From: Saprospiraceae bacterium
GTDB lineage: Bacteria > Bacteroidota > Bacteroidia > Chitinophagales > Saprospiraceae
DNA length: 56,361 nt
Assembly (NCBI GenBank): GCA_043754475.1
Contig: JAYUUR010000112.1
Coordinates: 1-56,361, forward strand
Reading direction: 5' to 3'
Shown here: positions 915-55,662 of the stretch, one piece after another
Layout of the letters: each line of letters opens with the position of its first letter
Numbering within the stretch: position 1 is the stretch's first letter
Translations under genes and position numbers: made by a program
Notes under the pieces: generated by a model
What the model was told of the DNA's origin: nothing
Databases searched by the model: none
The model's input: the letters and a program-made list of their open reading frames with translations, nothing else

Positions 915-2017
915 GTTATTTTTCTATCTCTTGCTATCACTTGCCACTCTTCGCCCGTCAAAATGCCGTTTTCAACGACATGAAGGCGTTCGTACAGAGC
1001 GCAAGTCGGGCAAATATGGAAAGGCACACCATATAAAATGTCACCCACTTGATAGGTATGCGGCGAAGGCAGTTCGATAACTAAATGCTCTTCAGACTGC
1101 CCTATAAATTTGGCTTCGGGCGCGTGTGGAAAATAAATACGCTTGGATAAATCATTTTCAGCAGCAATAGATTTATGACCCACATCCAAACATATTTTAC
1201 CTACATCAGGCAGAGAAATGACCCGACATGCCAGCCAAACGGCAGGTTCGAAAGCCTGTTCAGGAAATGCTGTTTGATAACCTTTGTCCCAAAACACAAA
1301 TGTTCCTGGGCTACACACCACGCGCTGCCGCTTGGAATGAATCGGATACGTTGATGCACCGCCCATCACAATTTCAAGCAAAGCAGTATCAGATTTGCCT
1401 AATTGATGCAATAGTTGTTCTACTTTGTTAAAACTTTCATCCGCTTCTTTTTGCCGAACAGCCAAATCAGTGTGATGGATATGTCCATCGTAGGCATGAA
1501 GACCCCTCAGTATAAGCTGCGGCAAAGACATGATTTCATGAAAAAAACGAAATGCTTTTTCAAGCAAAATACCCGTACGATTCATCCCGACATTTAAGTC
1601 AATATAAACATTGAGTTTTAAATGATGTTCAACTGCTAATTTGGATAGGCTTATGCCAATTTCAAGATTATCCACCAAGCAAGCAAAGCGCGTATCGGGG
1701 TATTTTTTAATCAAGTTGACCCATCTCAATTGCTTCGCACTATTGGGCTGATATGCCAACAAAACATCTTTTGCCCGACACATCGCCAGCATTTCCGCTT
1801 CTGCAATCGTAGCGCATTTGAATTTATCAATCCCAACGGCTTGTAGTAGCCGTGTGACCTCTTGCGTTTTGTGCGTTTTTACATGCGGACGCAAACGCTT
1901 CACATCATCAATCATGGAAATGAGCGTCTGGATATTGTGCTTCACCCCCTCAGTAGAAACGACTAAAGCGGGGGTATCGAGAGTGTCGATGTTGAGAATA
2001 GAGTAAGGAAATATCAT
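908..2017 (-). CDS. D-TA family PLP-dependent enzyme (D-serine dehydratase / D-threonine aldolase-like, alanine racemase N-terminal fold)
   Basis: 369-aa ORF. It carries the RPHVKTHK motif (PLP lysine in the HxKT context), which is characteristic of DSD1/D-threonine aldolase-type enzymes. Size and overall pattern fit that family. Confidence 0.7.
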   Translation of the reverse strand: MIFPYSILNIDTLDTPALVVSTEGVKHNIQTLISMIDDVKRLRPHVKTHKTQEVTRLLQAVGIDKFKCATIAEAEMLAMCRAKDVLLAYQPNSAKQLRWVNLIKKYPDTRFACLVDNLEIGISLSKLAVEHHLKLNVYIDLNVGMNRTGILLEKAFRFFHEIMSLPQLILRGLHAYDGHIHHTDLAVRQKEADESFNKVEQLLHQLGKSDTALLEIVMGGASTYPIHSKRQRVVCSPGTFVFWDKGYQTAFPEQAFEPAVWLACRVISLPDVGKICLDVGHKSIAAENDLSKRIYFPHAPEAKFIGQSEEHLVIELPSPHTYQVGDILYGVPFHICPTCALYERLHVVENGILTGEEWQVIARDRKITC

Positions 2018-2027
2018 TTATTATTAG

Positions 2028-2498
2028 TTAATGTAATTCAAACATCGCTTCAATCTCCACAGGAATACCATCGGGCAAAGATCCCATGCCCACCGCACTC
2101 CTGACGCCGATGCCATTCTCTTCGCCCCAAATATCTGCAAAAAGTTGACTACAACCATTGATAACATAGGGATGTTTGCCAAAATCGGCGGTGCAATTAA
2201 TCATGCCCAATACTTTAATCACCCGTTTGATTTTATTCAAACTGCCGACGTGGGTTTTAATAGTGGCGAGGATAGTGAGTCCAACTTGACGAGCCGCTAA
2301 TTTACCCGCTTCAATATCCATATCATCGCCAATGCGCCCAATGATAAGGCTACTATCTTCCTTGAAAGGCCCATGTCCTGACACATAAAGGTGATGCCCA
2401 TCAATCAAAAAAGGTTTGTACACCCCCATCGGCAGCGGTGCGGGCGGCAATACCAAGCCCATTTTTTCAAAGCGTTGTTCTGGAGAAAGTAGTTCCAT
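2028..2498 (-). CDS. RidA/YjgF family reactive enamine-imine deaminase
   Basis: 156-aa ORF with a YjgF/RidA-like pattern (...YVSGHGP..., ...GIGVRSAVGMGSLPDGIPVEIEAMFEL C-terminus). It lies 10 nt upstream of the D-TA gene on the same strand. Confidence 0.7.
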   Translation of the reverse strand: MELLSPEQRFEKMGLVLPPAPLPMGVYKPFLIDGHHLYVSGHGPFKEDSSLIIGRIGDDMDIEAGKLAARQVGLTILATIKTHVGSLNKIKRVIKVLGMINCTADFGKHPYVINGCSQLFADIWGEENGIGVRSAVGMGSLPDGIPVEIEAMFELH

Positions 2499-2516
2499 TT
2501 TATATAAAATTTATAT

Positions 2517-3830
2517 TTAAACAAACAAATTCAAAAATAAAACCCCAATCAAACCGACGATAGATACAATAGTTTCCATCAAAGACCAAGACCGAATAGT
2601 GTCTTTTATGCTTAAATTAAAATACTCTTTAAACAACCAAAACCCAGGGTCATTCACATGCGAGAACATCAAACTGCCCGCCCCAACAGACAAGACCATC
2701 AAACTCGGATTGACATTCAAACCTGGAATCATAGGTGCCAAAATACCCGCTGTGGTCAACCCCGCAACCGTTGCCGAACCCAAACACACGCGGATAACGG
2801 CAGCAATCAGCCAAGCCAATATCAGCGGCGGCATATTCACATCTTTTAATATGCTGCTCAATTGAGCGGTCAAGCCACCGTCTAACAGCACTTGCTTGAG
2901 TCCACCTGCGCCACCAATGATGAGTAAAACCATTGCCACATCCTTCACCGCAACGCCGTAAGTGTCCATGATAGACGGTATCTTTTTACCCATATTCAAT
3001 CCCAATGAAAAAGTAGCGACTATGAGCGCAATCATCATCACGATAGCAGGATCGCCGATAAAGCGAGACATTTTGACAATACCTTCATTTTGAGGAAAGA
3101 GAATAGGCAAGACGGTCGTCACTGCCAAAAGAATGACGGGTAATAAGGCGGTGATAAAACTATTCCAACCGCTGGGCAAGGCATCGTCAGGCAGGTTTTC
3201 GCTTTTGAATGCCTCCGTCGGTTGCGATATAATATGCTTTAACGTTTTTGAAAACAGGGGTCCCGCTATTATAATGGCTGGAATGGCTACCACAATGCCA
3301 TAAAAAAGTGTCAAACCCATATTGGCATTAAATTGAACGACCAATGCGGCTGGCGAAGGATGCGGGGGCAAAAAGCCATGTGCCACGGATAGGGACGCGA
3401 GCATCGGCAAGCCAATATAAACCGCTGGTAATTTATATTGATACACCACTGAAAAAATAAGAGGAATCACCAACACAAATCCGACATTGTAAAACAAAGG
3501 AATACCGATAATAAATCCCGTACTCATCAGCCCCCATTGAATATATTTTTCTCCAAAAATTTGAAGCATTAACGCTGCAATTTTTTGAGCCGCTCCACTT
3601 TCTGCTACCAATTTGCCGAGCATTGCCCCCAATATAATAATGACTATCAACGACCCCAGCATATCGCCTATGCCTTTTTGAATGGATGCCGATATTTTCT
3701 CCAAAGGAATACCCACCATGAAGCCTGTATAAATGGATACGCCTAAAAAAGCGAGGAAAGGGTTGACTTTCACTGCTGAAATCAACAAAATTAATAGCGC
3801 AAGGCTGGAGATGATAATGAAAATGGTCAT
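2517..3830 (-). CDS. GntP family permease (gluconate:H+ symporter family transporter)
   Basis: 437-aa polytopic membrane protein. Its length and glycine-rich helices (GIGDMLGSLIVIIILGAMLGKLVAESGAA...) are typical of GntP/DsdX-type transporters. Confidence 0.7.
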   Translation of the reverse strand: MTIFIIISSLALLILLISAVKVNPFLAFLGVSIYTGFMVGIPLEKISASIQKGIGDMLGSLIVIIILGAMLGKLVAESGAAQKIAALMLQIFGEKYIQWGLMSTGFIIGIPLFYNVGFVLVIPLIFSVVYQYKLPAVYIGLPMLASLSVAHGFLPPHPSPAALVVQFNANMGLTLFYGIVVAIPAIIIAGPLFSKTLKHIISQPTEAFKSENLPDDALPSGWNSFITALLPVILLAVTTVLPILFPQNEGIVKMSRFIGDPAIVMMIALIVATFSLGLNMGKKIPSIMDTYGVAVKDVAMVLLIIGGAGGLKQVLLDGGLTAQLSSILKDVNMPPLILAWLIAAVIRVCLGSATVAGLTTAGILAPMIPGLNVNPSLMVLSVGAGSLMFSHVNDPGFWLFKEYFNLSIKDTIRSWSLMETIVSIVGLIGVLFLNLFV

Positions 3831-3867
3831 GTTGGTTATTGGTTAATCGTTATTCGTTATTGTAAAT

Positions 3868-5196
3868 CTAATCCGTTTCTATCTTTTCAATTTTCAAGCC
3901 CAACGATTGCAGACGCGGCACTATATCTCCGTAGCCGCGTTCAATCATGGGCACCCCCCTCAGTATAGTCGTGCCTTTAGCGACTGCAGCGGCGATGACG
4001 TATGCTAAACCCGCTCTCAAATCGGGAATTTCTAAGGGTTGTTCAATCGCATGAAGAGGCGTTAATCCTGATATAATAGCAGAGTGTTGATGTCCTTTTC
4101 CCTCGAATCGACAGGGTGTATTGCCGAGGCAATGCGTCGTCAATTGCACCTCTGCACCTAATTTTTTCAAGGCATTTAGATAGCCAAAGCGGTTTTCATA
4201 TACCGTTTCATGCAAAACAGACACGCCATCTGCTTGAGTGAGGAGGACTGCGAAAGGCTGTTGCCAATCCGTCGAGAAACCAGGCCAAACGTCGGTTTCG
4301 AGGTGGATAGACTGAGGAGGTCTGGCTCTGAAAAAACGCATCGAATCACTATCAATCAATTCAAAACCACCGCCTGCTTGCCTAAAAGATGATAGGAAAT
4401 TGCCCAAAGTTTCAGGTCGAATACCATGCACGGTTATTGAACCATCCACAGCCGCAGCCAATGATGCCCAACTTGCTGTTTCGATGCGGTCACCCAAGCA
4501 ATTCATAACGCAACCCTTGAGTTCAGATACGCCTTCTATGCGAAACTCGCGCTTCGAATCAGTGAAAATAATAGCTCCCATTGCCCGCAACATCGTGACA
4601 ATCTCCATGATTTCGGGTTCGATAGCCACATTGTCAATGATAGATGTGCCTTCTGCCAAAACCGACAGGAAAAGGCAAGTCTCCGTTGCACCTACTGAGG
4701 GGTATTTGAGATTGATGTGGTGACCTTTCAAGCGGCTGTTTTTCTGAGCAATATAACCCTCATCACCTTCTATGATTTTTGCGCCAAAGTCTTGAATGGC
4801 ATCTATATGAAAATCCACACCCCGCGCCCCAATGATACAACCGCCCATAATTGGTACGCTGACTTCATCAAAACGGTGTAATAAAGCACTAATCATCAAG
4901 ATAGGCATCCGATTCGCCCCCGAATGTGGTTGCCGCACGGTCGAATCCTTCGCTTTCGTGGGGTCAATAACCATCACCTTTTTCTCTTTATACCAATCAA
5001 TCTGGACACCAAGCGAACGAAGCATATCCGCCGTAATTTCGACATCCCCGATGGGTGGTACATTGGTGAGCGTAGTCGGCGAGTTGCCGAGCAAAGCGGC
5101 AATCATGGCTTTGGTCGTAAAATTTTTAGCACCGTAGCAAGTAATTTCACCATGAAGGGAGTTGCCTCCTTGTATTTTGTAAGCTGAATGCGGCAT
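3868..5196 (-). CDS. murA: UDP-N-acetylglucosamine 1-carboxyvinyltransferase (MurA family)
   Basis: 442-aa ORF. It begins ...KIQGGNSLHGEITCYGAKNFTTKAMIAALL and ends ...IERGYGDIVPRLQSLGLKIE, the EPSP-synthase/MurA fold signature. Confidence 0.8.
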   Translation of the reverse strand: MPHSAYKIQGGNSLHGEITCYGAKNFTTKAMIAALLGNSPTTLTNVPPIGDVEITADMLRSLGVQIDWYKEKKVMVIDPTKAKDSTVRQPHSGANRMPILMISALLHRFDEVSVPIMGGCIIGARGVDFHIDAIQDFGAKIIEGDEGYIAQKNSRLKGHHINLKYPSVGATETCLFLSVLAEGTSIIDNVAIEPEIMEIVTMLRAMGAIIFTDSKREFRIEGVSELKGCVMNCLGDRIETASWASLAAAVDGSITVHGIRPETLGNFLSSFRQAGGGFELIDSDSMRFFRARPPQSIHLETDVWPGFSTDWQQPFAVLLTQADGVSVLHETVYENRFGYLNALKKLGAEVQLTTHCLGNTPCRFEGKGHQHSAIISGLTPLHAIEQPLEIPDLRAGLAYVIAAAVAKGTTILRGVPMIERGYGDIVPRLQSLGLKIEKIETD

Positions 5197-5300: not shown

Positions 5301-6821
5301 ATGTCAAAAGAAAATCAATTTTTAAGCACCATTACTGAGGGGTATGCCTTCAAAGGCGATTGCATCGAATTGGGCGGCGCGATGCTGAATGGAGAAGTCG
5401 TGGAAAACTGTATCGTAAAAATACCTTTAAAAACCATGAATCGACATGGTCTGATTGCGGGTGCAACAGGTTCGGGTAAGACTAAAACTTTGCAAATATT
5501 GGCAGAGCAATTATCATCCAAAGGAACACCCGTTTTATTGATGGATATAAAAGGTGACCTTTCGGGCATCGCAGTAGCAGGTGAAGAAAATGAAAAAATA
5601 GCAGAAAGGCATAAAAAAATAGGCATTACTCATACTTCAAACGGCAATCCTGTAGAGTTTTTAACGCTGTCTGATGAAAAAGGCGCGCGTTTGAGGGCAA
5701 CGGTGATTGAATTCGGTCCCGTTTTGTTTTCAAAAATATTGGGTTTGAATGATACGCAAGGCAGCGTGGTGAGTGTCGTTTTCAAATATTGCGACGATAA
5801 AGGTTGGCTTTTGTTGGATTTAGATGATTTTAAAAAAGTGCTTAATTACTTCATGAATGACGGTAAAGAAGAACTTAAAAAAGACTACGGCAATATTTCG
5901 CCGATGACAATAGGCACTATTTTACGCAAAGTCATCGAACTCGAACAGCAAGGCGCGGGCACTTTTTTTGGCGAACGCTCCTTTGAAGTAGAAGACCTTT
6001 GCCGCTTAGACGATGAAGGGCGCGGCATGATTAGCATACTCCGTTTGACCGATATTCAAGACCGCCCCAAGCTATTTTCAACGTTTATGTTGCAACTTTT
6101 AGCAGAAATGTACTCTACTTTTCCCGAAGAAGGTGATTTGGAGCAGCCTAAACTCTGCGTATTCATTGATGAAGCACATCTTGTTTTCAGCGAAGCCTCC
6201 AAAGCTTTATTGAGTCAAATAGAAAGTATTATCAAATTGATTCGCTCAAAAGGTGTTGGCGTATATTTCTGTACTCAAAATCCGCAAGACGTGCCTGATG
6301 CCGTTTTAGGTCAGTTGGGTATGAAAATGCAACATGCGCTGCGGGCTTTCACGGCAAAAGACCGTCAAAATATCCGCCTCGTGGCTCAAAATTATCCTTT
6401 GACAGATTTTTATGATGTCGAAAATTTGATAACACAATTGGGCATTGGTGAAGCATTTATTACAGTTTTAAATGAAAAAGGTATTCCTACGCCAATCGTT
6501 CAAACGATGTTGCGCGCGCCGCAATCGCGTATGGACGTGCTTTCGGAGGTTGAAATCGATAAAATACTGAGGGGGTCTCAAATCATTGAAAAATACAACG
6601 AAGTCATCAATAGAGAAAGTGCTTACGAAATTTTGACAAGCAAAGTAGAGACGACTTATGGTTCAGAAGTTCAAAAACCTGCTCAAAAAGAAGAACCTGG
6701 CATATTTGAAAAAGTATTAAAATCACCTGTTGCGAAGCAAGTCGGTAGCACCTTAGCGCGGGAGTTGACACGTGGTTTGTTGGGCATTTTAGGGCTTGGG
6801 GGGAGGAAGAAGATTTGGTGA
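5301..6821 (+). CDS. HerA-like helicase/ATPase, DUF853 (YjgR-like) family
   Basis: 506-aa ORF with Walker A GATGSGKT, Walker B-like CVFIDEAH, and a C-terminal basic tail. Length and pattern match YjgR/DUF853 proteins. Confidence 0.75.
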   Translation: MSKENQFLSTITEGYAFKGDCIELGGAMLNGEVVENCIVKIPLKTMNRHGLIAGATGSGKTKTLQILAEQLSSKGTPVLLMDIKGDLSGIAVAGEENEKIAERHKKIGITHTSNGNPVEFLTLSDEKGARLRATVIEFGPVLFSKILGLNDTQGSVVSVVFKYCDDKGWLLLDLDDFKKVLNYFMNDGKEELKKDYGNISPMTIGTILRKVIELEQQGAGTFFGERSFEVEDLCRLDDEGRGMISILRLTDIQDRPKLFSTFMLQLLAEMYSTFPEEGDLEQPKLCVFIDEAHLVFSEASKALLSQIESIIKLIRSKGVGVYFCTQNPQDVPDAVLGQLGMKMQHALRAFTAKDRQNIRLVAQNYPLTDFYDVENLITQLGIGEAFITVLNEKGIPTPIVQTMLRAPQSRMDVLSEVEIDKILRGSQIIEKYNEVINRESAYEILTSKVETTYGSEVQKPAQKEEPGIFEKVLKSPVAKQVGSTLARELTRGLLGILGLGGRKKIW

Positions 6822-6940: not shown

Positions 6941-7615
6941 TTAAAATGGCAACATCAAACCTGCGCTGAGAGCAATGCCTCGGTTGGTAATTTTGACAGA
7001 ATTATTGTCTTTGTCAAAATCTTGTAAACCATATAAATAGCGCACATCTATCACCAATCTGTTGCTGCCCACGCCCAATTGCAAGCCGCCGCCCAAATGC
7101 ACACCATAATCCAAGCGATTAGATCTTTCAAAATCGTACTTACCGCTTTTGTCTGAAATTTGAAGGACACCCCCGATTGTGCTTTTGCTGCTCGATTCCA
7201 CAGAACCACCTGCTGCATAACCCACACTCGGACCCGCTTGAAGATAAAAACCCAAACGCTCGCCGCCAATCAAACCCCTCAGTAACAACGGAAACTCGAC
7301 ATAATTTATCTTGTTTTTTGTATCCGTTTGGGTTGTGATGCCGCCGCTTGTACTGGTTGTCATCACACGGCTGCCTTTTTGAGTAAAATTAAATTCAGGT
7401 TGAATAGAAAAATTGTTACTCATTTTGATTTCTAAAGGAATAGCAAAATGAGTTCCCGTAATATTTTCGTTTTGGTCATTATTCCCCTCAGTATTCCATT
7501 TTGAGAGATTGAGACCTGCTCGAAAACCAATAGATGTTTGAGCTGTTAAAGAATAGTTGATAAAAAATAGCATTGAAGCCGCTATCGTAGCTTTTCTCAA
7601 AAGATTTGTAAGCAT
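6941..7615 (-). CDS. Small outer-membrane beta-barrel protein (porin-family / OMP_b-brl-type)
   Basis: 224-aa ORF with a signal peptide (...SMLFFINYSLTAQ), alternating beta-strand pattern, Gly-rich turns and a C-terminal ...GLMLPF aromatic end. Confidence 0.6.
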   Translation of the reverse strand: MLTNLLRKATIAASMLFFINYSLTAQTSIGFRAGLNLSKWNTEGNNDQNENITGTHFAIPLEIKMSNNFSIQPEFNFTQKGSRVMTTSTSGGITTQTDTKNKINYVEFPLLLRGLIGGERLGFYLQAGPSVGYAAGGSVESSSKSTIGGVLQISDKSGKYDFERSNRLDYGVHLGGGLQLGVGSNRLVIDVRYLYGLQDFDKDNNSVKITNRGIALSAGLMLPF

Positions 7616-8898: not shown

Positions 8899-8903
8899 AG
8901 TTT

Positions 8904-10455: not shown

Positions 10456-13400
10456 TTATTTCAAAATCACTAATTTTTCAAAATCACTTTCAGCCGTTAA
10501 TTTCTTACCTTTCACATCTTTACCCGTTATTTTTACTCGATAAAGATATACGCCGCGAGCGAGTTCACCCCCATAATCATCCTTACCATCCCAATTAATA
10601 TCGGCTATTCGATACCCCTCAGTATTTACATCTTGATCAATGGATTTAACGATTTTACCACTGACTGTAAAAATATTCACGCGCACATGTAGTTGTTGAC
10701 CGACTAAATTATGCTCGAACTGAAACTTTGTTTTTGTGGTAAATGGATTAGGATAATTCAATACATGACTCAAAGCCGCCTTTGCATTTGAAGCTACTAT
10801 AAATTCAGTATAACCTTCGGCTGCATTATTTGCTACATCCCATGCTTTCACTTTGATTTTATGCTTGCCCAAAGCCAATTTACTGAGGGGGTATCGCACT
10901 ACCCCTTTTGTCGGATCGTCTTTAACGGCTTCATAAAAATTATTGAGTGGCACTGTATTTTTTGCTTCATCCAGCGTGCCCGCCAAATCATGACCGATGC
11001 TTGTTCCTGCAATATTAATACCATTATCATCACTTAACTTAACATATAGCGTCGGATTAGGGTCAGTCATGCCGCCGAAAACAAAATTGTCATCATTCAT
11101 ATACACCTGCACAAGCGGCGGCTGATTATCCGCTGATACTGAGGGGTCGGTGCCCCCGATGATAAAATTCTCAAAATTACCGGCACCGTCCGTAGAGCCA
11201 TCGGTAGCGTAATAACTGATTTTTCCGTTTGAAAAAGAATAATCAATATCTTTTGGAATGATAAAAGAGAATTTCCATTCACCATTTTTAACTGTTGCAG
11301 CACCTTTGAAAAGTATATTTCTTTGAATCGTAAAATCCCTGACATAACTGCTGGGGTCTTGACCCAATGTTCTTAAAGTGGTTGCTTTATCATAAACGGT
11401 GGGATATAATGTACCATTAAAATTTTTCAGAATCAATCCGTTATCGTCTAAAACAGTGCCTTCAATCGTCACTCTTTGCAAGGCGCGCACTGTATCAGCA
11501 GTAGCATTAGCAACTTTGTTGTTGATTTTTAAAGTACCTACATTATAACGTGGCAAGGCTAAACGCATGGATGGGTCGCCTATGAGTGTGAATTTATTGC
11601 CATTATTGCCCGTTCTCGTAGCATTTTTAGCAGAAGTAATGATTTCTCCAATTGTCTGCGCCTTGTTATTGGCTTTTTTGAAAATAGTGTCAAATACCGC
11701 AGTCGTCAATTCAGCATTACTATTGGCATAAACTGCCCGAACGGTTGATAACAGCGCAATGACACCGCCGTTGGGATTTAAAAGGGCAATTTCACCCGCC
11801 GCTTCTTCTTTCGGATTGTCGTAACCGCTAAACGAACAAGTGGCTGTAATAAATAGAGGTAATTTATCAAAATTGCGCCATGTATCCAATTCCTCTCTCG
11901 TGAGTACTGCCTCTTGAGCCAATCGTTTGGGTCCGCCATGTCCTAAATAGCACATGGTCAAAACGCCTTTAAATTGGTCTTGATAAAGGGATTCATTCAG
12001 TGCAGGAACGCGCGTACCCCCTGCGGAAACGACTTGTGGAAACGCATCCACATATAATTTATCTAAATTAATATTCTTTTCACCCCCAAAAACATTATCA
12101 GCTATGCGGTCGCAATCGTTCATGTGGGCATTGGCATCTTCATCGTCTGCCATGAATACGGCTCGATTGCGCCAATCACCTAAGGCTGACGGGCTTTCAT
12201 AATTCAAAATTTTACGCACTACGGCATCTGCTTCGGTAGCTGTTTTGCAAACGATGCGTCCAACGGCAATATCCAAATCGCCTTCCAAATCTTCACCCCC
12301 CTCAGTATCGGAGAGCAAAGCGTAATAATCATCACTTGGATAAGATTCGATGCCGTCAAAATCACTATCCACTTCGTAAGGGGGAATAAAATCGCTGGGT
12401 TGAAGGTTGCCCAAAGGATAAATGCGCTTATAATCAAACGAACCATCGCCCATGAGGAGCATATATTTGAAACGAAGATTGCGGGTGAGTAATAAGCGAG
12501 CGAAATCTCGAATAGCCGAAGGGTCGAGCGCGCCACTCGAAAATTCATTATAAATCTGACCGATTTCCGCTAATTCTACGGTGAAACCAGATTTTTTACG
12601 GCGTTGCTCTGCAAGCGTTTTAGCAGCCGCTTCAAAATTTTTATGATAGACGATTATTAAGTCAATATTATCAATGGCGTGTAAATTTTGATTCGCTATT
12701 TTACCAACTGCCGTGGGTTTAAGCAAGGCTGCGCTTTTATCAAAAGCCACAAATTCTTTTAAGGTATTATTTGTTGCAGCACCAAAACTTAATGTATTTC
12801 CTGCAAGTGTAAACTCTTGATTTTTAGGCTTTTGTAGATTTGTTATATCCCAAATAAGGGTATTACCGCTGGCATTGGCTACTTGAAAATTAGTCGTTGC
12901 AAAGTTCATACTTTTCACATCTCTAAAGCTCAATTGGCTCTCCGTCAATTGCAAACGCCTACGTGCATTGACTTGAATAAAATCCAACCAACCCAATCTG
13001 CCTTCTGAGGAGGGGTATGCTACTTTGATGTCAATATTTTCACCTGAAGGAATGTATTTTCCATAAATATCATCCATATCTGCCATTTTATCTTCGGAAG
13101 GATTGCTACCCGCAGCGGAAATATAGCCCGTATAACTTTGCCCTGAGGAGGTGACCGTGAAATTGATTAGCCCACTGGTGATACCTGCAAATTGTACCCT
13201 CAATTTAACCGAATCCGCAGCAATAATATTTGGAAATTTGAATTTATCGGTATAAGTGCGCTCTTGAACGCTGCTGACAAAGGCATCGCCGAACCAAAGT
13301 TTACCCGTGCCTTGCGTACAATTGCAAGGTTGACTGGCAAAAAGATTGATTTTATCCTCTTCCAAACGGAGGTAATCATTGAAAGCCGTAGAGGTAAAAG

Positions 13401-14310
13401 TTGTATTGGAAAGAGAATTTTGAGTAGCGGCTCTTAAACCATTGCCGCCATTAATTTTAATAAAATAAAAACTTTCGTTGGCATATACATTTTTAGGGCG
13501 ATTGAACTCCAAGTTTTTACTATCAAAATACCATTTATCGGGACCTACGCCATAAAATAAAATATAGTCCCCTGCATCAAATTTGCCATCCGCTTCGCCT
13601 GAAATAACCACTGAGTTTTCAATCAAATCATCGGGTCTTGCAGTTGCATTGGCTTCGGGCAGTATACCGCCGCCGTTGCCATATATTTTAATAGTTCGGG
13701 GGTCAATTTGGTCAATATTGGCTATTTTTAATTGGTTTTTTAAAAAATCATAATCCAATTTAAAAACACCTGTTTCTTTAATTGAAACTTTATAAATATC
13801 ACCATCTTTTAAAGCCGATTCTCGCGTACCAAGCAACCCTCTTTCGGCAATGCGTGTTTTAGATGGTTGAAAGGCAATGCGTAATTCAAAATCAGTCAAT
13901 TTTTCAAGATTAGTACCCGTTTTGCGAATCGGGATAAATTCAATATTTCCAAAATATTTACCCCGCTCCTGCGTTACAATGGCTGAAAGAACCACGTTTT
14001 CAGAAAGCTGGGAATGGTCTTTATCGGCTCTAATACTGAGGGGGGTAAATTGCGTATTATTAAAATCAACGCTCAATTGACCATCGGATTCCAAAGGGAA
14101 ACGATAGACGAAAACAGGCAAAGTCTGCGTTTTATGTTTGCTATACACCGCCCCTTTGAAAGTTGCCATTTCACGACTTTGCTTATTAGGAATCTGATTG
14201 ACCAACGGCTTTTCCGCCCATACGAGAACTCGGCGCAGTGTAAAAGAAGACTGAGCCAATGAAAACGTTAAACCGACGATGGTGAGGAGTGTTGTAAAGA
14301 TAAATTTCAT
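10456..14310 (-). CDS. porU: T9SS C-terminal signal peptidase/sortase PorU (peptidase C25 family)
   Basis: 1284-aa ORF with a signal peptide, a gingipain-like C25 core, and a C-terminal NYPNPF... sorting-domain-like end. It is adjacent to porV, as in other Bacteroidota. Confidence 0.8.
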   Translation of the reverse strand: MKFIFTTLLTIVGLTFSLAQSSFTLRRVLVWAEKPLVNQIPNKQSREMATFKGAVYSKHKTQTLPVFVYRFPLESDGQLSVDFNNTQFTPLSIRADKDHSQLSENVVLSAIVTQERGKYFGNIEFIPIRKTGTNLEKLTDFELRIAFQPSKTRIAERGLLGTRESALKDGDIYKVSIKETGVFKLDYDFLKNQLKIANIDQIDPRTIKIYGNGGGILPEANATARPDDLIENSVVISGEADGKFDAGDYILFYGVGPDKWYFDSKNLEFNRPKNVYANESFYFIKINGGNGLRAATQNSLSNTTFTSTAFNDYLRLEEDKINLFASQPCNCTQGTGKLWFGDAFVSSVQERTYTDKFKFPNIIAADSVKLRVQFAGITSGLINFTVTSSGQSYTGYISAAGSNPSEDKMADMDDIYGKYIPSGENIDIKVAYPSSEGRLGWLDFIQVNARRRLQLTESQLSFRDVKSMNFATTNFQVANASGNTLIWDITNLQKPKNQEFTLAGNTLSFGAATNNTLKEFVAFDKSAALLKPTAVGKIANQNLHAIDNIDLIIVYHKNFEAAAKTLAEQRRKKSGFTVELAEIGQIYNEFSSGALDPSAIRDFARLLLTRNLRFKYMLLMGDGSFDYKRIYPLGNLQPSDFIPPYEVDSDFDGIESYPSDDYYALLSDTEGGEDLEGDLDIAVGRIVCKTATEADAVVRKILNYESPSALGDWRNRAVFMADDEDANAHMNDCDRIADNVFGGEKNINLDKLYVDAFPQVVSAGGTRVPALNESLYQDQFKGVLTMCYLGHGGPKRLAQEAVLTREELDTWRNFDKLPLFITATCSFSGYDNPKEEAAGEIALLNPNGGVIALLSTVRAVYANSNAELTTAVFDTIFKKANNKAQTIGEIITSAKNATRTGNNGNKFTLIGDPSMRLALPRYNVGTLKINNKVANATADTVRALQRVTIEGTVLDDNGLILKNFNGTLYPTVYDKATTLRTLGQDPSSYVRDFTIQRNILFKGAATVKNGEWKFSFIIPKDIDYSFSNGKISYYATDGSTDGAGNFENFIIGGTDPSVSADNQPPLVQVYMNDDNFVFGGMTDPNPTLYVKLSDDNGINIAGTSIGHDLAGTLDEAKNTVPLNNFYEAVKDDPTKGVVRYPLSKLALGKHKIKVKAWDVANNAAEGYTEFIVASNAKAALSHVLNYPNPFTTKTKFQFEHNLVGQQLHVRVNIFTVSGKIVKSIDQDVNTEGYRIADINWDGKDDYGGELARGVYLYRVKITGKDVKGKKLTAESDFEKLVILK

Positions 14311-14479: not shown

Positions 14480-15499
14480 ATGAATAAAAAATTACTGTTT
14501 GCGCTTTTACTCGGTTTTATACTGAGGGGGTTTGATGCTCAGGCTCAAGACCCTGTTTTCAGCCAATTTTATGCTTCTCCCTTGCAGCTCAATCCAGCGT
14601 TTGCAGGCAGTGCAATGGCGCCTTTCATCGCGCTCAATTATAGGATGCAATATCCAGGATTCAGTGGTGGCGCGGCTTATTCTACTTTTGCAGCCAGCTT
14701 CGACCAGCATCTGAAAGGTTTGAACAGCGGCATCGGTTTTAGCCTCATGACTGACGATGCAGGGCAAGGGATTTTGAAAAAAACGTATGCCAGTGCTGTT
14801 TACTCCTATAAAGTGGATATTAATAAACAACTTTCTACGCGTATAGGCATCGAAGCAGGTTTTATCCAAAGCAATTTGAATTGGGACAAATTGGTTTTTG
14901 GCGATCAATTAGACGCTATCAATGGACCGACTAATCCAGATGGTTCTGTACGACCTTCCTCTGAAATACGTCCTGAAAAAACTAACAATACCTTATTCGA
15001 TATATCAACGGGCATATTGGTTTATGGTGCAGGATTTCATGGTGGCTTAGTGGCAAAGCATTTAGCGACACCTAATGAAGGCTTTTTGAATGTCAATCAG
15101 AACTTAAAAATAGGTTTACCCATGCGCTTGACTGCACATGCGGGCTATGAATTTACACTAAAAAAAGCGACACGTTACAGCCCTTCTAATTTTATTTCTC
15201 CGACGGTCATGTTTGTGAAACAAGGAGATTTTGCTCAATTGATGGTGGGTACTTATGCGGGTTTAGGTCCTATTATTGTCGGCGGTTGGTATCGCCATGC
15301 TTATACAAACCCTGAATCCGTTGTATTAATGATGGGTTTCAAGCAGGACTATTTTAAAATCGGCTATAGTTTTGATTATACTATCGGCTCACTTTCAGGC
15401 AGAACAGCAGGTTCTCATGAAATATCCTTGACCCTCAATCTCGACCCGGGGGCGGGTAAAAGAGTGGATATAAGTGACTGTTTTCAGATATTTAGGTAG
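14480..15499 (+). CDS. PorP/SprF family T9SS membrane protein
   Basis: 339-aa ORF with a signal peptide followed by QDPVFSQFYASPLQLNPAFAG, the hallmark N-terminal block of PorP/SprF proteins. Confidence 0.8.
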   Translation: MNKKLLFALLLGFILRGFDAQAQDPVFSQFYASPLQLNPAFAGSAMAPFIALNYRMQYPGFSGGAAYSTFAASFDQHLKGLNSGIGFSLMTDDAGQGILKKTYASAVYSYKVDINKQLSTRIGIEAGFIQSNLNWDKLVFGDQLDAINGPTNPDGSVRPSSEIRPEKTNNTLFDISTGILVYGAGFHGGLVAKHLATPNEGFLNVNQNLKIGLPMRLTAHAGYEFTLKKATRYSPSNFISPTVMFVKQGDFAQLMVGTYAGLGPIIVGGWYRHAYTNPESVVLMMGFKQDYFKIGYSFDYTIGSLSGRTAGSHEISLTLNLDPGAGKRVDISDCFQIFR

Positions 15500-15612: not shown

Positions 15613-16518
15613 ATGATGAAGCAATTTTTTACAAGTGTAAATCGTACCGCCAAACTGCATTTTACTGAGGGGGTCAAGTATATGGTGATTAGTACACTTT
15701 GTTTTACTGTTATGCAAGGTCTGATTAAATTTTTACCTCAAGACCGTATTCCTACCATCGAACAGACGTTTTTTCGCTCATTCATTACGGCTATATTTTG
15801 TGTGTTTTTTATGTTTAAAAAGCATATCCCTTTTGCTATTAAAAATGTAAAAATGATTTTGATACGGAGCATAGTCGGGTCTATTTCAATGTTTGCATTC
15901 TTTTATGTTTTACCTCGAATGCCTTTTGGCAGCTCTGTTACTATCAAGTATTTATCACCTGTTTTCACCGCTTTATTTGCTGGAGCAATGTTGAACGAAA
16001 GAATAAAACCCATCCAATGGATTTATATTTTAATGGCTTTTATCGGTATTACATTTTTGAAAGGATTTGATGACCGCATCGCTTTGATAGATTTGTTCAT
16101 TGCACTTATATCAGCCGTAACTGCAGGATTATTATACATCATACTTCGGCAAATTGGGAATGATGACCATCCTTATACAGTGGTTTTTTATTTTATGCTC
16201 ATCGCCAGTCTTATATCTGCCGTTTTGATGATTCCCTATTGGGTAACACCCACTATAGAAGACAGTTGGGTATTTTTAGGCGTCGGTTTTTCTGGATTTA
16301 TAGCTCAAATATATATGACCAAAGCCTTTCAAGAAAAAGAAGATGCCAATTATTTAGCCCAATTTAAGTACTTAGAAGCCGTTTTCGCCATCATCATTGG
16401 CTATTTATGGTTTGGCGAAACCTATAATTTTTTGAGCTTTTTGGGCATAGTACTCATATTTATTAGCCTCATTTTAAACATTCGTTTGAAATCGAAGGAA
16501 AAAGTCCTAACAAAATGA
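15613..16518 (+). CDS. DMT superfamily (EamA-type) transporter
   Basis: 301-aa ORF with about 10 predicted TM helices in two EamA-like halves. Confidence 0.7.
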   Translation: MMKQFFTSVNRTAKLHFTEGVKYMVISTLCFTVMQGLIKFLPQDRIPTIEQTFFRSFITAIFCVFFMFKKHIPFAIKNVKMILIRSIVGSISMFAFFYVLPRMPFGSSVTIKYLSPVFTALFAGAMLNERIKPIQWIYILMAFIGITFLKGFDDRIALIDLFIALISAVTAGLLYIILRQIGNDDHPYTVVFYFMLIASLISAVLMIPYWVTPTIEDSWVFLGVGFSGFIAQIYMTKAFQEKEDANYLAQFKYLEAVFAIIIGYLWFGETYNFLSFLGIVLIFISLILNIRLKSKEKVLTK

Positions 16519-16681: not shown

Positions 16682-16691
16682 CCCCTCAGTA
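16682..16691 (-). repeat. Intergenic copy of the iterated word (CCCCTCAGTA on plus strand)
   Basis: Exact 10-mer. It forms the left flank of the AbiE cassette. Confidence 0.95.
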
Positions 16692-18520: not shown

Positions 18521-18930
18521 AAATGAGATTAAATTTAATACCTCTCAGTAAAACTTGTGAAAATGACCATTTTATTCGACACAACAACTATCAAGCAAAC
18601 TATAAAAACCCGCTTTCAACAAGCCACATAATGCATCGAAATAGCGATAGCATAGTTCACTGATACCCCAAGTCACAAATATTACTTACTAAAATCATAA
18701 GACTCAAGAGTTTGGCATAAGTTTGGGGAACTAAAGAAGCCTATACTATTTTGGTTATTAAACACTTTTAAAATAAAACAATATCTTGTAGTATTTAAGA
18801 CGTATATATAAATGCGGAAAGAGTTTTAATTTTAGTTAAATTTTAGACTAAAATCAATAATCAATAAAATAAACTCCTTCGCAGAGCGTTAAAATGCGAA
18901 CAGAAAAGGAAAGAGATTTAACAAAATAAG

Positions 18931-21820: not shown

Positions 21821-21830
21821 CCCCTCAGTA
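21821..21830 (-). repeat. Intergenic copy of the iterated word (CCCCTCAGTA)
   Basis: Exact 10-mer between the tandem duplication and the terminator hairpin. Confidence 0.95.
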
Positions 21831-34978: not shown

Positions 34979-34988
34979 TACTGAGGGG
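34979..34988 (+). repeat. Intergenic copy of the iterated word (TACTGAGGGG)
   Basis: Exact 10-mer immediately 5' of the terminator hairpin. Confidence 0.95.
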
Positions 34989-37203: not shown

Positions 37204-37213
37204 TACTGAGGGG
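37204..37213 (+). repeat. Intergenic copy of the iterated word (TACTGAGGGG)
   Basis: Exact 10-mer in the 62-nt gap between two cluster genes. Confidence 0.9.
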
Positions 37214-37215
37214 TA

Positions 37216-37620: not shown

Positions 37621-37780
37621 AATAATGGTAATTTTGTTAATAAAGATTTGATATAAATATTCAATTTTCACATCGGTTAGAAAAATCATTTGACTATCAA
37701 TAATCATTACGGCTTATTTAAATCATTGGTTGCCCCCTCTCAGTATTTGATTGAAGATTGCTACTTTAAAAAGCATTCCT

Positions 37781-39827: not shown

Positions 39828-39837
39828 CCCCTCAGTA
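39828..39837 (-). repeat. Iterated word in the rpoA-rplQ spacer
   Basis: Exact CCCCTCAGTA inside a 161-nt spacer. Confidence 0.95.
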
Positions 39838-42079: not shown

Positions 42080-42089
42080 TACTGAGGGG
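42080..42089 (+). repeat. Iterated word in the rpsM-rpsK spacer
   Basis: Exact TACTGAGGGG inside a 112-nt spacer. Confidence 0.95.
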
Positions 42090-42964: not shown

Positions 42965-43801
42965 CTAATTTTTTATTGAAATTTCCAAGAGATTTGAATT
43001 TTTCTTTACAGCTTCTTGTATGAATGAGTGGTCGGAAAGAATATCCGCTTTTTTTCCTTTGCGGATGGCGATAGTGTGTTCAAAGTGTGCGGAAGGTTTT
43101 TTATCAGATGTGATGATTGTCCAACCATCTCCAATACCCGTTACTTCCTTTGTTCCTAAATTAATCATTGGTTCAATAGCGATTACCAAACCATCTCTCA
43201 GTACAACGCCGTTTCCTCGTTTACCATGATTAGGCACATCCGGATCTTCGTGTAATGCTTTACCGATACCATGTCCTGTCAAATCTCTTACTACACCATA
43301 TTTATGGTGCTTCTCACAATATTCAAAAATGGCAAAGCCAATATCTCCTATTCTTTTTCCAACCATTGCTTGATCAATACCTTTATAAAGTGATGTATTT
43401 GTCACATTTAAAAGGTCTAATACTGAGGGGGTAACACCTCCTAAAGCGAAAGTATAAGCAGCATCTCCAAAATACCCATTTAATAAAGTACCGCAATCCA
43501 CTGAAACAACATCATTATCTTGAAACTCTCGATTGGTAGGAATGCCATGAACAACGGCTTCATTCATAGATATGCACAAAGCGGCAGGGAAATCGCGGTA
43601 ACCTTTGAAAGCAGGAACAGCATTATGATCTCTAATAAACTCCTCCGCTTTTTGATCTATAAATTGACTTGTAATACCGGGCTTGATTAATGTACCAACG
43701 TAAGCTAAAGTTTTTGAAACTAATAAACAACTCTCACGAATTAATTCAATTTCATCATCCGTTTTGTAGTATATTTCTTTTTTCTCGCTTGATTGAAACA
43801 T
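42965..43801 (-). CDS. map: Type I methionine aminopeptidase
   Basis: MetAP pattern (…VVHGIP…DVVSVDCG…GHGIG…LHEDP…IAIEPM…FEHT). I prefer the ATG at 43801 because 43828 would overlap secY. Confidence 0.9.
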   Translation of the reverse strand: MFQSSEKKEIYYKTDDEIELIRESCLLVSKTLAYVGTLIKPGITSQFIDQKAEEFIRDHNAVPAFKGYRDFPAALCISMNEAVVHGIPTNREFQDNDVVSVDCGTLLNGYFGDAAYTFALGGVTPSVLDLLNVTNTSLYKGIDQAMVGKRIGDIGFAIFEYCEKHHKYGVVRDLTGHGIGKALHEDPDVPNHGKRGNGVVLRDGLVIAIEPMINLGTKEVTGIGDGWTIITSDKKPSAHFEHTIAIRKGKKADILSDHSFIQEAVKKNSNLLEISIKN

Positions 43802-46557: not shown

Positions 46558-46567
46558 TACTGAGGGG
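46558..46567 (+). repeat. Iterated word in the rplR-rpsE spacer
   Basis: Exact TACTGAGGGG inside a 133-nt spacer, 4 nt after repeat copy A. Confidence 0.95.
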
Positions 46568-48054: not shown

Positions 48055-48064
48055 TACTGAGGGG
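48055..48064 (+). repeat. Iterated word in the rpsN-rpsH spacer
   Basis: Exact TACTGAGGGG inside a 161-nt spacer. Confidence 0.95.
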
Positions 48065-49837: not shown

Positions 49838-50098
49838 TTATTTCGCTTTCGCAACCACTTCAATAAGTCTCCAACGCTTCAATTTACTGAGGGGGCGTGT
49901 CTCCATGATGAGGACAGTATCGCCCACTCCGACAACATTCAACTCGTCGTGAGCGTGTAATTTCTTAGTTTGCTTGACGAATTTGCCGTAAATCGGATGC
50001 TTCAACTTACGCTCTACTTTTACAGTAATCGTCTTGTTTCTCGCACTACTTGATACGATACCGATACGGGTCTTTCTAAGATTTCTTTCAGCACTCAT
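49838..50098 (-). CDS. rpsQ: 30S ribosomal protein S17
   Basis: ...[19 protein letters not shown]...[17 protein letters not shown]... The RPLSK codons spell the iterated word. Confidence 0.95.
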
Positions 50099-51081: not shown

Positions 51082-52032
51082 TTATTTTTTGACTCCGCCG
51101 CCGCCACCACCGCGATTTCCACCGCCGCCGCCACCGCCACGATTGCCGCCACCGCCAGTTCCGCCACCACGATTGCCGCCACCTGCTCCACCGCTACCAC
51201 CGCGATTTCCACCGCCGCCGCCACGATTGTCACGTCCATCTCCACCACCTCTATTATCTCTGCGATCACCACCGCCTCTGTTATCACGACGATCACCACC
51301 ACCTCTGTTATCACGGCGATCTCCACCGCCTCTATTATCTCTGCGATCTCCGCCGCCGCCGCCAGTATTTGTAGTAGACCCCTCAGTAAGAAGCGTTAAT
51401 TCGCGCTTACCAAAGACTTCGCCTTTACAAATCCAAACTTTGATACCCAATTTTCCATAAACAGTTTGAGCTTCGCTGTGAGCGTAATCAATATCCGCAC
51501 GGAAAGTATGTAGAGGTGTACGACCTTCTTTGAATTCTTCACTCCGAGCCATATCTGCACCGTTCAAACGACCACCAATACGCACTTTGATACCTTCGGC
51601 ACCTACACGCATAGTTTGTTGAATAGCCATTTTGATAGCACGTCGATAGTTGATACGACCTTCAAGCTGTTTAGCTATAGATTCACCAACAATAGCGGCA
51701 TCTAATTCCGGCTTACGGATTTCATTGATGTTGATTTGAACATCTTTACCGGTGAGTTTTTTTAACTCTTCGCGGATACGATCAACTTCTTGACCACCTT
51801 TGCCGATAATAATACCGGGGCGAGATGTCTGAATTGTAACCGTTACACGCTTGAGCGTGCGCTCCATGATAACACGGGCAACGCCACCTTTGCTAATACG
51901 GGCTTTGAGGTAATTACGGATTCTTTCATCCTCAACTACTTTCTCCGCCATATCTTTACCACCGAACCAGTTAGATTCCCAACCACGGATGATACCCAAG
52001 CGATTACCTATCGGATTTGCTTTTTGACCCAT
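51082..52032 (-). CDS. rpsC: 30S ribosomal protein S3 with ~98-aa Gly/Arg/Asp/Asn repeat tail
   Basis: [23 protein letters not shown]..., with KH and S3-C domains, followed by the tail (GGGDRRDNR)x4-5 and (G)nNR repeats. Confidence 0.93.
51223..51357 (-). repeat. Five tandem 27-nt units encoding GGGD(R/G)RDNR within rpsC
   Basis: Units occupy 51223-51249, 51250-51276, 51277-51303, 51304-51330 and 51331-51357. They have synonymous and near-synonymous differences. Confidence 0.9.
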
Positions 52033-52536: not shown

Positions 52537-52546
52537 TACTGAGGGG
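52537..52546 (+). repeat. Iterated word in the rpsS-rplV spacer
   Basis: Exact TACTGAGGGG inside a 141-nt spacer. The local sequence tatactgagggggtata has 5-nt inverted arms. Confidence 0.95.
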
Positions 52547-54174: not shown

Positions 54175-54196
54175 TGATAATTGACTATTTAATCAA

Positions 54197-54823
54197 TCAA
54201 TTAAACATTTCTTGAATTTTTGCTACTGAACCTTCCGACAAAACCAATGATTGTGTTTGCATGATTTGATAAGTGTTCAAATCACTTGCACGAGTCAATG
54301 CTACACGTTGAATATTACGGCTTGATTTCAATAAATTTTCGTTCAATTCAGGTGTTACAAGTACAGTTCTTTTACCCGCAATTCCTAAGCTTTTAAGAAC
54401 ATTGATAAGCTCTTTGGTTTTAGGGGCTTCCATATTGAAATCCTCTATAATCATAATAGAACCTGACGCAGCTTTAGTAGAAAGTGCTGATTTACGAGCC
54501 AGTTGCTTCACTTTTTTGTTCAATTTGACAACATATTCGTGAGGCTTAGGACCGAAAACACGCGCACCACCATATAAAAGCGGTGAATTAATATCACCTC
54601 TACGTGCGCCACCTGTTCCTTTTTGTTTGAACAATTTACGCGTAGAACCCGACATTTCACTCCGTTCTTTCGACTTGTGCGTACCTTGACGTTGATGCGC
54701 CAAATAGGCTTTCACAGCAAGATATACGACATGTTGATTCGGCTCAATGCCGAAGATGTCAGCAGGCAATTCAACGCTTCTGCCGGTCTTCTGACCTTGT
54801 ATATTTAAAACATCTACTTGCAT
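54197..54823 (-). CDS. rplD: 50S ribosomal protein L4
   Basis: ...YLAHQRQGTHKSKERSEMSGSTRKLFKQKGTGGARRGD... Confidence 0.95.
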   Translation of the reverse strand: MQVDVLNIQGQKTGRSVELPADIFGIEPNQHVVYLAVKAYLAHQRQGTHKSKERSEMSGSTRKLFKQKGTGGARRGDINSPLLYGGARVFGPKPHEYVVKLNKKVKQLARKSALSTKAASGSIMIIEDFNMEAPKTKELINVLKSLGIAGKRTVLVTPELNENLLKSSRNIQRVALTRASDLNTYQIMQTQSLVLSEGSVAKIQEMFN

Positions 54824-54830
54824 TTCTTAT

Positions 54831-55454
54831 TTATTTTTCAATAATGATATACGCGCCTTTATGACCCGGAACCGCTCCTTTTACGAGCATTAGATTTTGG
54901 TCAGCAAAGATTTTAGCTACTTTCAAACCTTTTATAGTCACTGTATCGCCACCAGTACGACCAGCCATCCGCATACCTTTCATGACCTTTGAAGGGAATG
55001 AAGATGCTCCGATAGAACCCGGTGCTCTTAAACGATCATGTTGACCATGTGTGCTTTGACCGACACCGCTAAAGCCGTGACGCTTGACAACACCTTGAAA
55101 ACCTTTACCTTTAGATGTACCTACTACGAATACTTTATCTCCTTCTGCAAATATCTCAGCGACATTAATAGTGTCACCTAATTGTTTGGCGATACTTGCG
55201 TTGCGAAATTCAACCACTTGGCTCATAGCACCCTCAACACCAGCTTTCTTGAAGTGTCCAAGCATTTGCTTTGATGTATTTTTTGCTTTTGCCTCGCCGA
55301 AAGCTACCTGTAGCGCATCGTATCCATCAGTTTCACTCGTTTTGACTTGAGTTACAACGTTTGGACCCAATTCTACAACCGTTACGGGGATAGAATTTCC
55401 CTTTTCATCGAAGATGCTGGTCATACCAACTTTCTTTCCGATTAATCCGTTCAC
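54831..55454 (-). CDS. rplC: 50S ribosomal protein L3
   Basis: (M/V)[18 protein letters not shown]... from the GTG at 55454. The track ORF is over-extended to an upstream ATG at 55535. Confidence 0.9.
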
Positions 55455-55652
55455 TTTATTAATAATTTTAAATTTTAAGAAATTTAGACAGGCAGAACTT
55501 ACCGTTCCCGTTAGTGAGATGTGCCGAAGTATCATTATGAATGAATAATTAAAATTATTACCATCATGGCTTGATACGTGAGAGATTTAAAACAAGTATA
55601 AAAGATTGAATGCCTTTACTTTGTAAAAAATTACTCTCTTGTTTTCGACAGA

Positions 55653-55662
55653 TACTGAGGGG
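55653..55662 (+). repeat. Iterated word in the rpsJ-rplC spacer
   Basis: Exact TACTGAGGGG (local gatactgaggggtatc) inside a 339-nt spacer. Confidence 0.95.

Follow-up and report, generated by a model that had tools for sequence, protein, structure and literature searches.

A hyper-abundant oriented word of uncultured Saprospiraceae as a candidate DNA self-recognition tag

Why would a bacterial chromosome carry the same ten-letter word dozens of times, within genes and between them and on both strands? The question is raised by contig JAYUUR010000112.1 of a Saprospiraceae bacterium (assembly GCA_043754475.1), which we analysed over its whole length of 56,361 nt, hereafter the window. The word is the 10-mer TACTGAGGGG, present in 43 exact copies, of which 22 lie on the + strand and the other 21 on the - strand. 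An original prediction, made from the letters of the window, had listed these copies and likened them to DNA uptake sequences (DUS) and uptake signal sequences (USS). We found about 1 copy per kb in the window contig, and likewise in some phages and in related Saprospiraceae genomes, all uncultured and at least 25 in number; the word belongs to a clade, not to one contig. Our preferred reading, to which we give a probability of about 0.55, is that A-TACTGAGGGG(G)-T would be a DUS-like self-recognition tag of a deep uncultured Saprospiraceae clade, spread by biased uptake and recombination.

Abundance, form and distribution of the word

All 43 coordinates and strands given by the original prediction turned out to be exact matches. 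It had also estimated ~0.06 copies by chance, that is, an excess of several hundred-fold, and this holds on recomputation, the expectation being 0.01 copies in dinucleotide-preserving shuffles of the window and 0.03-0.37 under Markov models of orders 1-4. Orders of 5 and above are meaningless here: the 8- and 9-mers of TACTGAGGGG are found almost solely within the word, so the expectation becomes circular. As a matter of fact, the maximal-order test that had been suggested was run and proved uninformative, with an expectation of 42 copies. The word is the commonest 10-mer of the window and, together with its overlapping pieces, makes up the top 8- to 12-mers. Across the clade, 601 copies were counted in 804 kb, as compared with 0.47 expected (order-2 Markov), a frequency nowhere near the Markov expectation. 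Chance or composition was ruled out by the shuffles, by the low-order models and by an outgroup of the same GC content that has no copy (see below).

The consensus in the window reads W-TACTGAGGGG(G)-T-a. The word is asymmetric and not a palindrome, complementarity being limited to its TAC and GTA ends. In 39 of the 43 copies, the word is preceded by A or T (position -1), and the base after the G run is T in 37, followed by A in 22, all as read by eye in the prediction. G runs are 4 (14 copies), 5 (22), 6 (6) or 8 (1) bases long; the counts for 4 and 8 had been right, and those for 5 and 6 had been given as 23 and 5, a trivial miscount. Flank statistics were drawn from 214 kb of clade DNA not selected by the word, which hold 148 copies. 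There, every flanking position carried <0.2 bit, except -1 (A 65%, T 24%) and +10 (G 72%, T 26%, A or C hardly ever), and the word takes the form A-TACTGAGGGG(G)-T, 10-14 bases long. Alignment of the flanks disclosed neither a longer element nor terminal repeats or target-site duplications, and nothing was conserved beyond -1 and +10/+11, in line with what had been noticed in the window. A weak compositional signal of 0.1-0.2 bit per position was seen further out, with A/T favoured at -12/-11 and G/C at -7 to -5, which might reflect a DNA-shape preference or codon context.

The exact form dominates. In the 804 kb of clade DNA, the 601 exact copies compare with ~110 single-mismatch copies in total, the commonest change being G-to-A within the G run. 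Sub-words of 5-8 bases, counted outside the word, occur at expectation. Avoidance or protection related to a restriction site was considered and rejected, the embedded CTGAG being just mildly under-represented outside the word (145 seen, 210 expected).

How far the word extends was seen by scanning ATACTGAGGGGGTA in one genome per bacterial or archaeal species, which returned at least 113 stretches. Among the matches listed, 97 of the 113 belonged to 21 Saprospiraceae metagenome-assembled genomes (MAGs), or to one Bacteroidota MAG of the same sample set; the word-bearing MAGs came mostly from glacier-fed and alpine streams, and the 16 unrelated genomes had no second 10-mer beyond the single anchor match. 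In the 21 MAGs, the 10-mer occurred at 0.26-1.04 per kb besides the anchoring match. Since the 113 loci fetched through the word overlapped the window in a single 72-bp match alone, relatives were fetched through homologues of PorU, a procedure that avoids ascertainment by the word itself. The nine contigs obtained (PorU identity 80-56%) carried the word at 0.45-1.03 per kb, and it was the first or joint-first 10-mer in 8 of them. In contrast, an outgroup (L123; PorU identity 53%, GC 39.6%, like that of the clade) had 0 copies in 19 kb, and a Saprospiraceae genome of 52% GC had 1 copy in 24 kb. The original prediction had named equal abundance in unrelated genomes of similar composition as a finding that would speak against it; the same-GC outgroup shows the opposite. 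Relatives and the outgroup also have other, locally repeated words: GACTAATGAC 14 times in L120, CGAGCGAAGC 14 times and CATTTTTCGG 11 times in L122, and ATCATTCATCA 13 times in outgroup L123.

An assembly artefact was rejected as well, an independent Logan assembly (L233) being 100% identical to window positions 8902-23140 (14.2 kb). The same word sites are present in NCBI, ENA, JGI and Logan assemblies.

How copies come about was examined on porU, codon-aligned across 10 clade species and 2 outgroups. Ten sites bear the word in at least one species, and none of the ten involves an indel: orthologous sites that lack the word have equal length. For instance, the peptide YPLS(K/N)L is spelled TAC CCC CTC AGT A in 9 of the 10 clade species and is kept in the outgroups as CCG TTG AGC or CCG CTG CGC. 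Elsewhere in porU, the word costs amino-acid changes, such as TNNT to NTEGV. Copies arise by point substitution in existing sequence, not by insertion. Once there, they stay: of 379 comparisons between species in five syntenic genes, 262 (69%) showed the identical word in the second species at the aligned position, as compared with 5.0% for control 10-mers of the same genes. Two conserved genes of the window, porV (9045-10298) and the gldJ-like gene (18971-20500), and their orthologues in L114-L122 had no copy in any of the 4-8 species compared, and the neighbouring porU had 2-6 copies per species.

Long open reading frames (ORFs) run uninterrupted through the copies of the window, and all five stop-free frames are used, the sense frames encoding xTEG and (I/L)LRG and the antisense frames PLS, xPSV and PPQY. 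The tripeptides PSV, TEG, PLS, PQY and LRG are 2-4 times enriched in the sampled clade proteome, PSV and TEG being its two most over-represented tripeptides.

Among the 601 clade copies, 423 lie in ORFs, in near-equal numbers sense (211) and antisense (212), and 178 are intergenic. The DNA is 85.6% coding, and 30% of the copies fall in the 14% that is non-coding, where the word is ~2.5 times denser. For the window, the prediction had counted 18 sense, 15 antisense and 10 intergenic copies. The first figure is confirmed; our crude ORF set gave 17 antisense and 8 intergenic, and the split of 15 and 10 is equally defensible because two copies, at 37204 and 42080, sit at doubtful TTG starts. A structured RNA was discarded as an explanation: the window has no Rfam match, and equal numbers of sense and antisense copies argue against a role at the RNA level.

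Orientation was balanced, with 261 copies on the + and 262 on the - strand in clade loci, and heterogeneity among 85 loci was unremarkable (chi-square 101 on 85 degrees of freedom, p=0.11). Mean GC skew on the strand of the word was ~0, and orientation was unrelated to local GC skew. This excludes a polarity of the kind known for Chi or KOPS, a bias of up to ~60:40 being still compatible with these data, which come from incomplete chromosomes only. Spacing was more even than random placement would give: the coefficient of variation (CV) was 0.76, as compared with 0.99 +/- 0.075 in simulations, 3 of 5000 of which were as low, and the smallest gap between copies was 145 nt.

The word also occurs in phages. 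IMG/VR was scanned with the 14-mer, and 108 stretches matched, 96 of which hold one copy, as chance would give. Two contigs stood out, L173 with 11 copies of the 10-mer in 14.4 kb and L162 with 6 in 7.1 kb, that is, a host-like 0.76-0.85 per kb; L208, L181, L171 and L187 were also copy-rich, and the six span 0.3-0.85 per kb. Because L173 and L162 encode a terminase large subunit, a head maturation protease, an endolysin and a ParB-methyltransferase, we regard them as real phage DNA. The word could help to recognize phages whose hosts belong to this Saprospiraceae clade.

A proposed uptake tag and the rival readings

How could a chromosome come to be loaded with such a word? In the reading that we favour, natural transformation would occur in cells of the clade, with a receptor at the surface or in the periplasm that would bind double-stranded DNA containing the full word (at least 10 bases) in either orientation. 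Fragments bearing the word would be preferentially taken up and would replace their homologues by RecA-dependent recombination. Since such fragments would be favoured in uptake and then recombine, point mutations that create or perfect a copy would be over-transmitted, by molecular drive, wherever the encoded protein tolerates them. Over time, the chromosome and its long-resident temperate phages would become loaded with ~1 copy per kb. Competence, a bias in uptake and the existence of a receptor are all three things that we infer, and the receptor is probably not a minor pilin of the ComP type. The word works like a DUS or USS, a likeness that falls short of proven membership in their family. 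A bolder proposal, for which we see about even odds, is that it represents a third, independently evolved uptake sequence system and the first outside Proteobacteria, belonging to a multi-genus clade of streams and glacier-fed streams, read by a receptor other than a type IV minor pilin and adopted as a tag by temperate phages.

Several observations weigh against an uptake tag. The exact word does not vary over a clade that reaches down to 56% PorU identity, and no dialects like those of Neisseriaceae were seen. Approximately half of DUS/USS lie in predicted terminators, as do >90% of those that form inverted repeats (bioRxiv 10.1101/2025.10.24.684340); here, none of the window's strong terminator-like hairpins contains the word, which led us to reject a terminator component for the window, and inverted pairs <100 nt apart numbered 8 among 601 copies. 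A place in terminators is common among DUS/USS, but what defines them is the preference of competent cells for DNA that bears the word. Neither competence genes (comEC, dprA, comF, comEA) nor a receptor turned up in the clade DNA covered, ~1 Mb of scattered pieces or about one-fifth of a genome equivalent, and crude motif searches there for signatures of prepilins, DprA and ComF returned nothing, a negative of little weight at that coverage. Neighbouring copies mildly tend to share their orientation, with 216 switches over 494 adjacent pairs (0.437). The tendency is visible in the window too, with 15 switches in 42 pairs (permutation p=0.03) and runs at 16.7-31.8 kb and 35-55.7 kb, and shows no link to gene strand or GC skew. 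A replication-polar word was dismissed, and the window's apparent orientation switch near 33 kb does not recur at other loci. Finally, the example of HIP1 in cyanobacteria, long without a known function, cautions against taking every hyper-abundant word that keeps its positions for a classical uptake signal (PMC5861425).

This last precedent leads to the alternative that we take most seriously, while holding it to be rather unlikely, namely a recognition site inside the cell that is kept by selection, as for HIP1 or Chi, and to which a protein of recombination, repair, nuclease control or the nucleoid would bind. The word would then mark resident DNA as 'self' or stimulate recombination, and phages would mimic it to their advantage. 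Conservation of position across species is the very argument used for selection on HIP1 (PMC5861425), which was recently tied to transformation efficiency and to Chi-like effects (bioRxiv 10.1101/2024.09.10.611283). Spacing more even than random fits such a site as well, and so does a host-like density in phage genomes, which should follow if any DNA in the cell gains protection or another benefit from the word. What speaks for drive is rather the scale of the phenomenon: selection acting site by site is not known to yield a >1000-fold excess of a 10-14-mer, and the known motifs of Chi, KOPS and HIP1 have 5-8 bases with an excess that is modest (Chi, KOPS) or 15- to 300-fold (HIP1). Moreover, Chi and KOPS are strongly polar, whereas the word is split 261 to 262 between strands (heterogeneity among loci, p=0.11); it is non-palindromic, with no obvious methylation palindrome embedded; and many of its copies cost amino-acid changes or force codons, which better fits drive than selection for a useful site.

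Origin by point substitution, presence in phage DNA and G-to-A transitions in the G run as the commonest change among mismatched copies would also fit a sequence-biased repair or gene conversion, of the very-short-patch type, that turns near-cognates into the word in any replicating DNA with no uptake at all. We judge this improbable. No known mismatch-specific nuclease reads an asymmetric context of 10-12 bp, and sub-words and near-cognates are neither depleted nor enriched outside the word. A purely local mutational process does not predict over-dispersed spacing (minimum gap 145 nt, CV 0.76), nor does it sit well with porV and gldJ-like genes lacking copies in every species compared or with an apparently strain-specific AbiE insertion that has no exact copy. 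Least probable by far is a tiny mobile or inserted element, such as a miniature inverted-repeat transposable element (MITE), a repetitive extragenic palindromic (REP) sequence or a Rickettsia palindromic element, or else a polar signal of the KOPS type. High copy number and copies inside genes are the sole points in its favour. The original prediction had recognized that a longer mobile-element consensus would undo its interpretation; the aligned flanks hold <0.2 bit per position and lack both terminal inverted repeats and target-site duplications, all 10 porU sites are free of indels when set against orthologues, and the word is found in five reading frames, with G runs of variable length and intact ORFs. 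The flank logos and the indel-free alignments effectively refute a mobile mini-element, and the lack of strand polarity speaks against the polar signal.

To our knowledge, sequence-specific DNA uptake has been known only from two proteobacterial families, and a receptor for an uptake word only in Neisseria, the Pasteurellaceae candidate being predicted and not shown; we know of no mechanism for the passage of DNA across the outer membrane in Bacteroidota. If uptake were confirmed, the word would be the first self-recognition tag of its kind in Bacteroidota. A tag throughout the clade would mean that specificity in uptake evolves repeatedly, the 14-mer would provide a concrete bait for a Bacteroidota DNA receptor, and frequent within-clade recombination would be implied in abundant uncultured bacteria of freshwater biofilms. 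Independently of mechanism, the word makes a near-diagnostic marker in contig binning and in assigning phages to the clade, and it is worth adding to DNA constructs in attempts at genetic tools for Saprospiraceae.

The window and its copies

The window is an entire contig with the appearance of an ordinary Bacteroidota chromosome. The phylum had been rightly guessed in the original prediction, the closest named records being MAGs of Saprospiraceae. Its genes include those of type IX secretion (porU, porV, porP/sprF), a gldJ-like gene, transporters, AbiEi/AbiEii and rpoA, and a long run of small ORFs reads as a ribosomal-protein cluster. No competence gene was seen in the window. In a relative, the Salar de Ascotan MAG (L122), an Endonuclease_NS family protein (PF01223) is encoded at 132-1187, 9 kb from porU; we take this family to include the pneumococcal competence nuclease EndA.

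Starting from the left end, coding sequence (CDS) 908-2017(-) holds two sense copies, 1503..1512 (-), read as ILRG, and 1946..1955 (-), read as STEG. In the EPSP_synthase family CDS 3868-5196(-), one copy is sense (3956..3965, -, ILRG) and the other antisense (4693..4702, +, YPSV). Both copies of the HerA-like CDS 5301-6821(+) are sense, at 5333..5342 (+, ITEG) and 6565..6574 (+, ILRG), as are the two of CDS 6941-7615(-), which encodes an outer membrane protein (OMP) beta-barrel, at 7275..7284 (-, LLRG) and 7484..7493 (-, NTEG).

The porU gene (10456-14310, -) contains five copies, whose conservation differs. That at 10615..10624 (-, sense, NTEG) is confined to the species of the window, while the antisense copy at 10881..10890 (+, YPLSK) has the word at its site in 9 of 10 clade species. 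The others are common to 6 of 10 species (11137..11146, +, antisense, DPSV), 7 of 10 (12298..12307, -, sense, DTEG) and 8 of 10 (14034..14043, +, antisense, PLSI). Next to porU, the sense copy 14520..14529 (+, ILRG) of porP/sprF (14480-15499, +) recurs at the aligned position in each of the 9 species compared.

The EamA-family CDS 15613-16518(+) has a sense copy at 15663..15672 (+, FTEG), followed by an intergenic one at 16682..16691 (-), directly ahead of the AbiEi/AbiEii pair. This toxin-antitoxin pair (AbiEi, DUF6088) occupies 16781-18520, between the EamA-family and gldJ-like genes, and is not at that place in relatives L114, L116 and L119; it looks like a strain-specific insertion. It carries no exact word, and the largest gap between copies in the window, from 16682 to 20622, spans it. 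A one-mismatch copy, TACTGAGAGG, lies directly after the AbiEii gene at 18541..18550 (-).

Beyond this gap, the Caroten_synth CDS 20546-21277(+) has two antisense copies, 20622..20631 (-, PPQY) and 20936..20945 (-, PLSI). The copy at 21821..21830 (-) is intergenic and lies 8 nt past a terminator-like hairpin (21874-21838), outside its stem. In the TonB-dependent receptor CDS 23824-25995(+), the word is antisense at 24906..24915 (-, TPSV) and sense at 25545..25554 (+, ITEG). The MFS CDS 26510-27646(-) has two sense copies, at 26687..26696 (-, NTEG) and at 27071..27080 (-, NTEGG), the latter with the G run of 8, and the adjoining NT5C CDS 27653-28174(-) has a sense copy at 28001..28010 (-, FTEG). 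Two antisense copies encoding TPSV, at 28817..28826 (-) and 29894..29903 (-), fall in CDS 28716-30134(+). In the amine-oxidase-family CDS 30131-31627(+), a sense copy (30943..30952, +, NTEG) is accompanied by an antisense one (31418..31427, -, PLSI), and the histidine kinase CDS 31709-33100(-) has a sense copy at 31757..31766 (-, STEG). The spacer between these two convergent genes contains a tandem repeat, (GAATTAG) x 9, at 31630-31695, which may alternatively be described as a 21-nt unit x 3.

In the right-hand part, the copy at 34979..34988 (+) is intergenic and stands beside, and outside, a hairpin with a T run after it. Antisense copies follow in the DUF5777 CDS 35062-35967(-) (35931..35940, +, PLSI), in CDS 36764-37219(-) (36851..36860, +, TPSV) and in the AlaDh/PNT CDS 37781-38932(-) (38696..38705, +, APSV). 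The two copies of ambiguous placement are 37204..37213 (+), either on the doubtful TTG start of CDS 36764-37219(-) or immediately upstream of it, and 42080..42089 (+), similarly placed with respect to the doubtful TTG start of the S11-like ORF 41653-42093(-). Downstream of rpoA (39862-40923, -) lies an intergenic copy at 39828..39837 (-). The methionine aminopeptidase CDS 42965-43828(-) has an antisense copy at 43421..43430 (+, TPSV). Inside the ribosomal-protein gene cluster, 46558..46567 (+) and 48055..48064 (+) are intergenic, and 49885..49894 (+, PLSK) is antisense in a small ribosomal-protein-like ORF (49838-50098, -). The S3-like ORF 51082-52032(-) has a sense copy at 51379..51388 (-, LTEG), directly ahead of a C-terminal repeat tail of ~100 residues with tandem repeats at 51095-51357, which is unusual for a bacterial S3. 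The last two copies, 52537..52546 (+) and 55653..55662 (+), are intergenic.

Degenerate copies had been proposed at six places. Those at 502, 18541 and 24346 were right, corresponding to AACTGAGGGG at 502..511 (-), the copy after AbiEii already described and GACTGAGGGG at 24346..24355 (-). The one placed at 37733 is a TACTGAGAGG copy at 37736..37745 (-), and the candidates at 12994 and 39108 have more than one mismatch.

Comparison with known recognition words

A literature search for the word brought up primer matches and no paper that mentions it in a bacterial setting, and one for uptake sequences of Bacteroidota or Saprospiraceae yielded nothing relevant. The likeness to DNA uptake sequences put forward by the original prediction extends to abundance, clade restriction, origin by substitution, conservation and non-polarity, and further to the non-coding excess, even spacing, tripeptides and a host-like density in some phage contigs; it fails with respect to terminators.

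Unlike a MITE, a REP sequence or a Rickettsia palindromic element, the Saprospiraceae word has no long consensus, terminal repeats or insertion signature. Chi and KOPS/AIMS, which guide RecBCD/AddAB and FtsK, are likewise oriented, over-represented words scattered through genes, and Chi is also a 'self' marker that phages can acquire. These words, however, have 5-8 bases, a modest excess and a strong co-orientation with replication, which reaches 75-95% for Chi and KOPS. HIP1 (GCGATCGC, cyanobacteria) is also a hyper-abundant short word found within and between ORFs, kept at orthologous positions and arising by substitution. Yet HIP1 is an 8-bp palindrome with methyltransferase sites and a 15- to 300-fold excess, whereas the Saprospiraceae word lacks symmetry, measures 10 bp or more and exceeds expectation >1000-fold, and no cognate methylase is known for it.

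The closest counterparts are the uptake sequences of Proteobacteria. DUS and USS arise gradually by point mutation, not by insertion, are in excess in non-coding DNA, show no orientation bias and a significantly even spacing, and have been explained by molecular drive; 65% of the copies lie in ORFs in Haemophilus and 35% in Neisseria (PMC1939737). They roughly double the tripeptides that they encode and are absent from genes without homologues in relatives, and 956 of the 1471 USS of H. influenzae are in ORFs (PMC2817400). Temperate phages gather them up to a host-like density, and large lytic phages stay poor (PMC6776037).

The DUS (AT-GCCGTCTGAA and its dialects, Neisseriaceae), which is bound by the type IV minor pilin ComP, is likewise a non-palindromic 10-12-mer present at ~1/kb in both orientations. 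Like the Saprospiraceae word, it is common to related species, made by point mutation, positionally stable and enriched in non-coding DNA, with no chromosome polarity and a very sharp preference for the exact form. The two differ in sequence and phylum, and the Saprospiraceae word shows no dialects across 56% PorU identity, has 70% of its copies in ORFs as compared with ~35% for DUS, and is seldom found in inverted pairs or terminators. The USS of Pasteurellaceae (AAGTGCGGT core, and the Apl dialect) has AT-rich, helically phased flanks, whereas those of the Saprospiraceae word carry almost no information; the core is also longer here (10-11 bases instead of 9), and one-mismatch forms are relatively rarer. 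In most other respects noted, USS resembles the word, with 65-70% of its copies in ORFs (423 of 601 here), enriched tripeptides, even spacing, no orientation bias and a host-like density in phage contigs.

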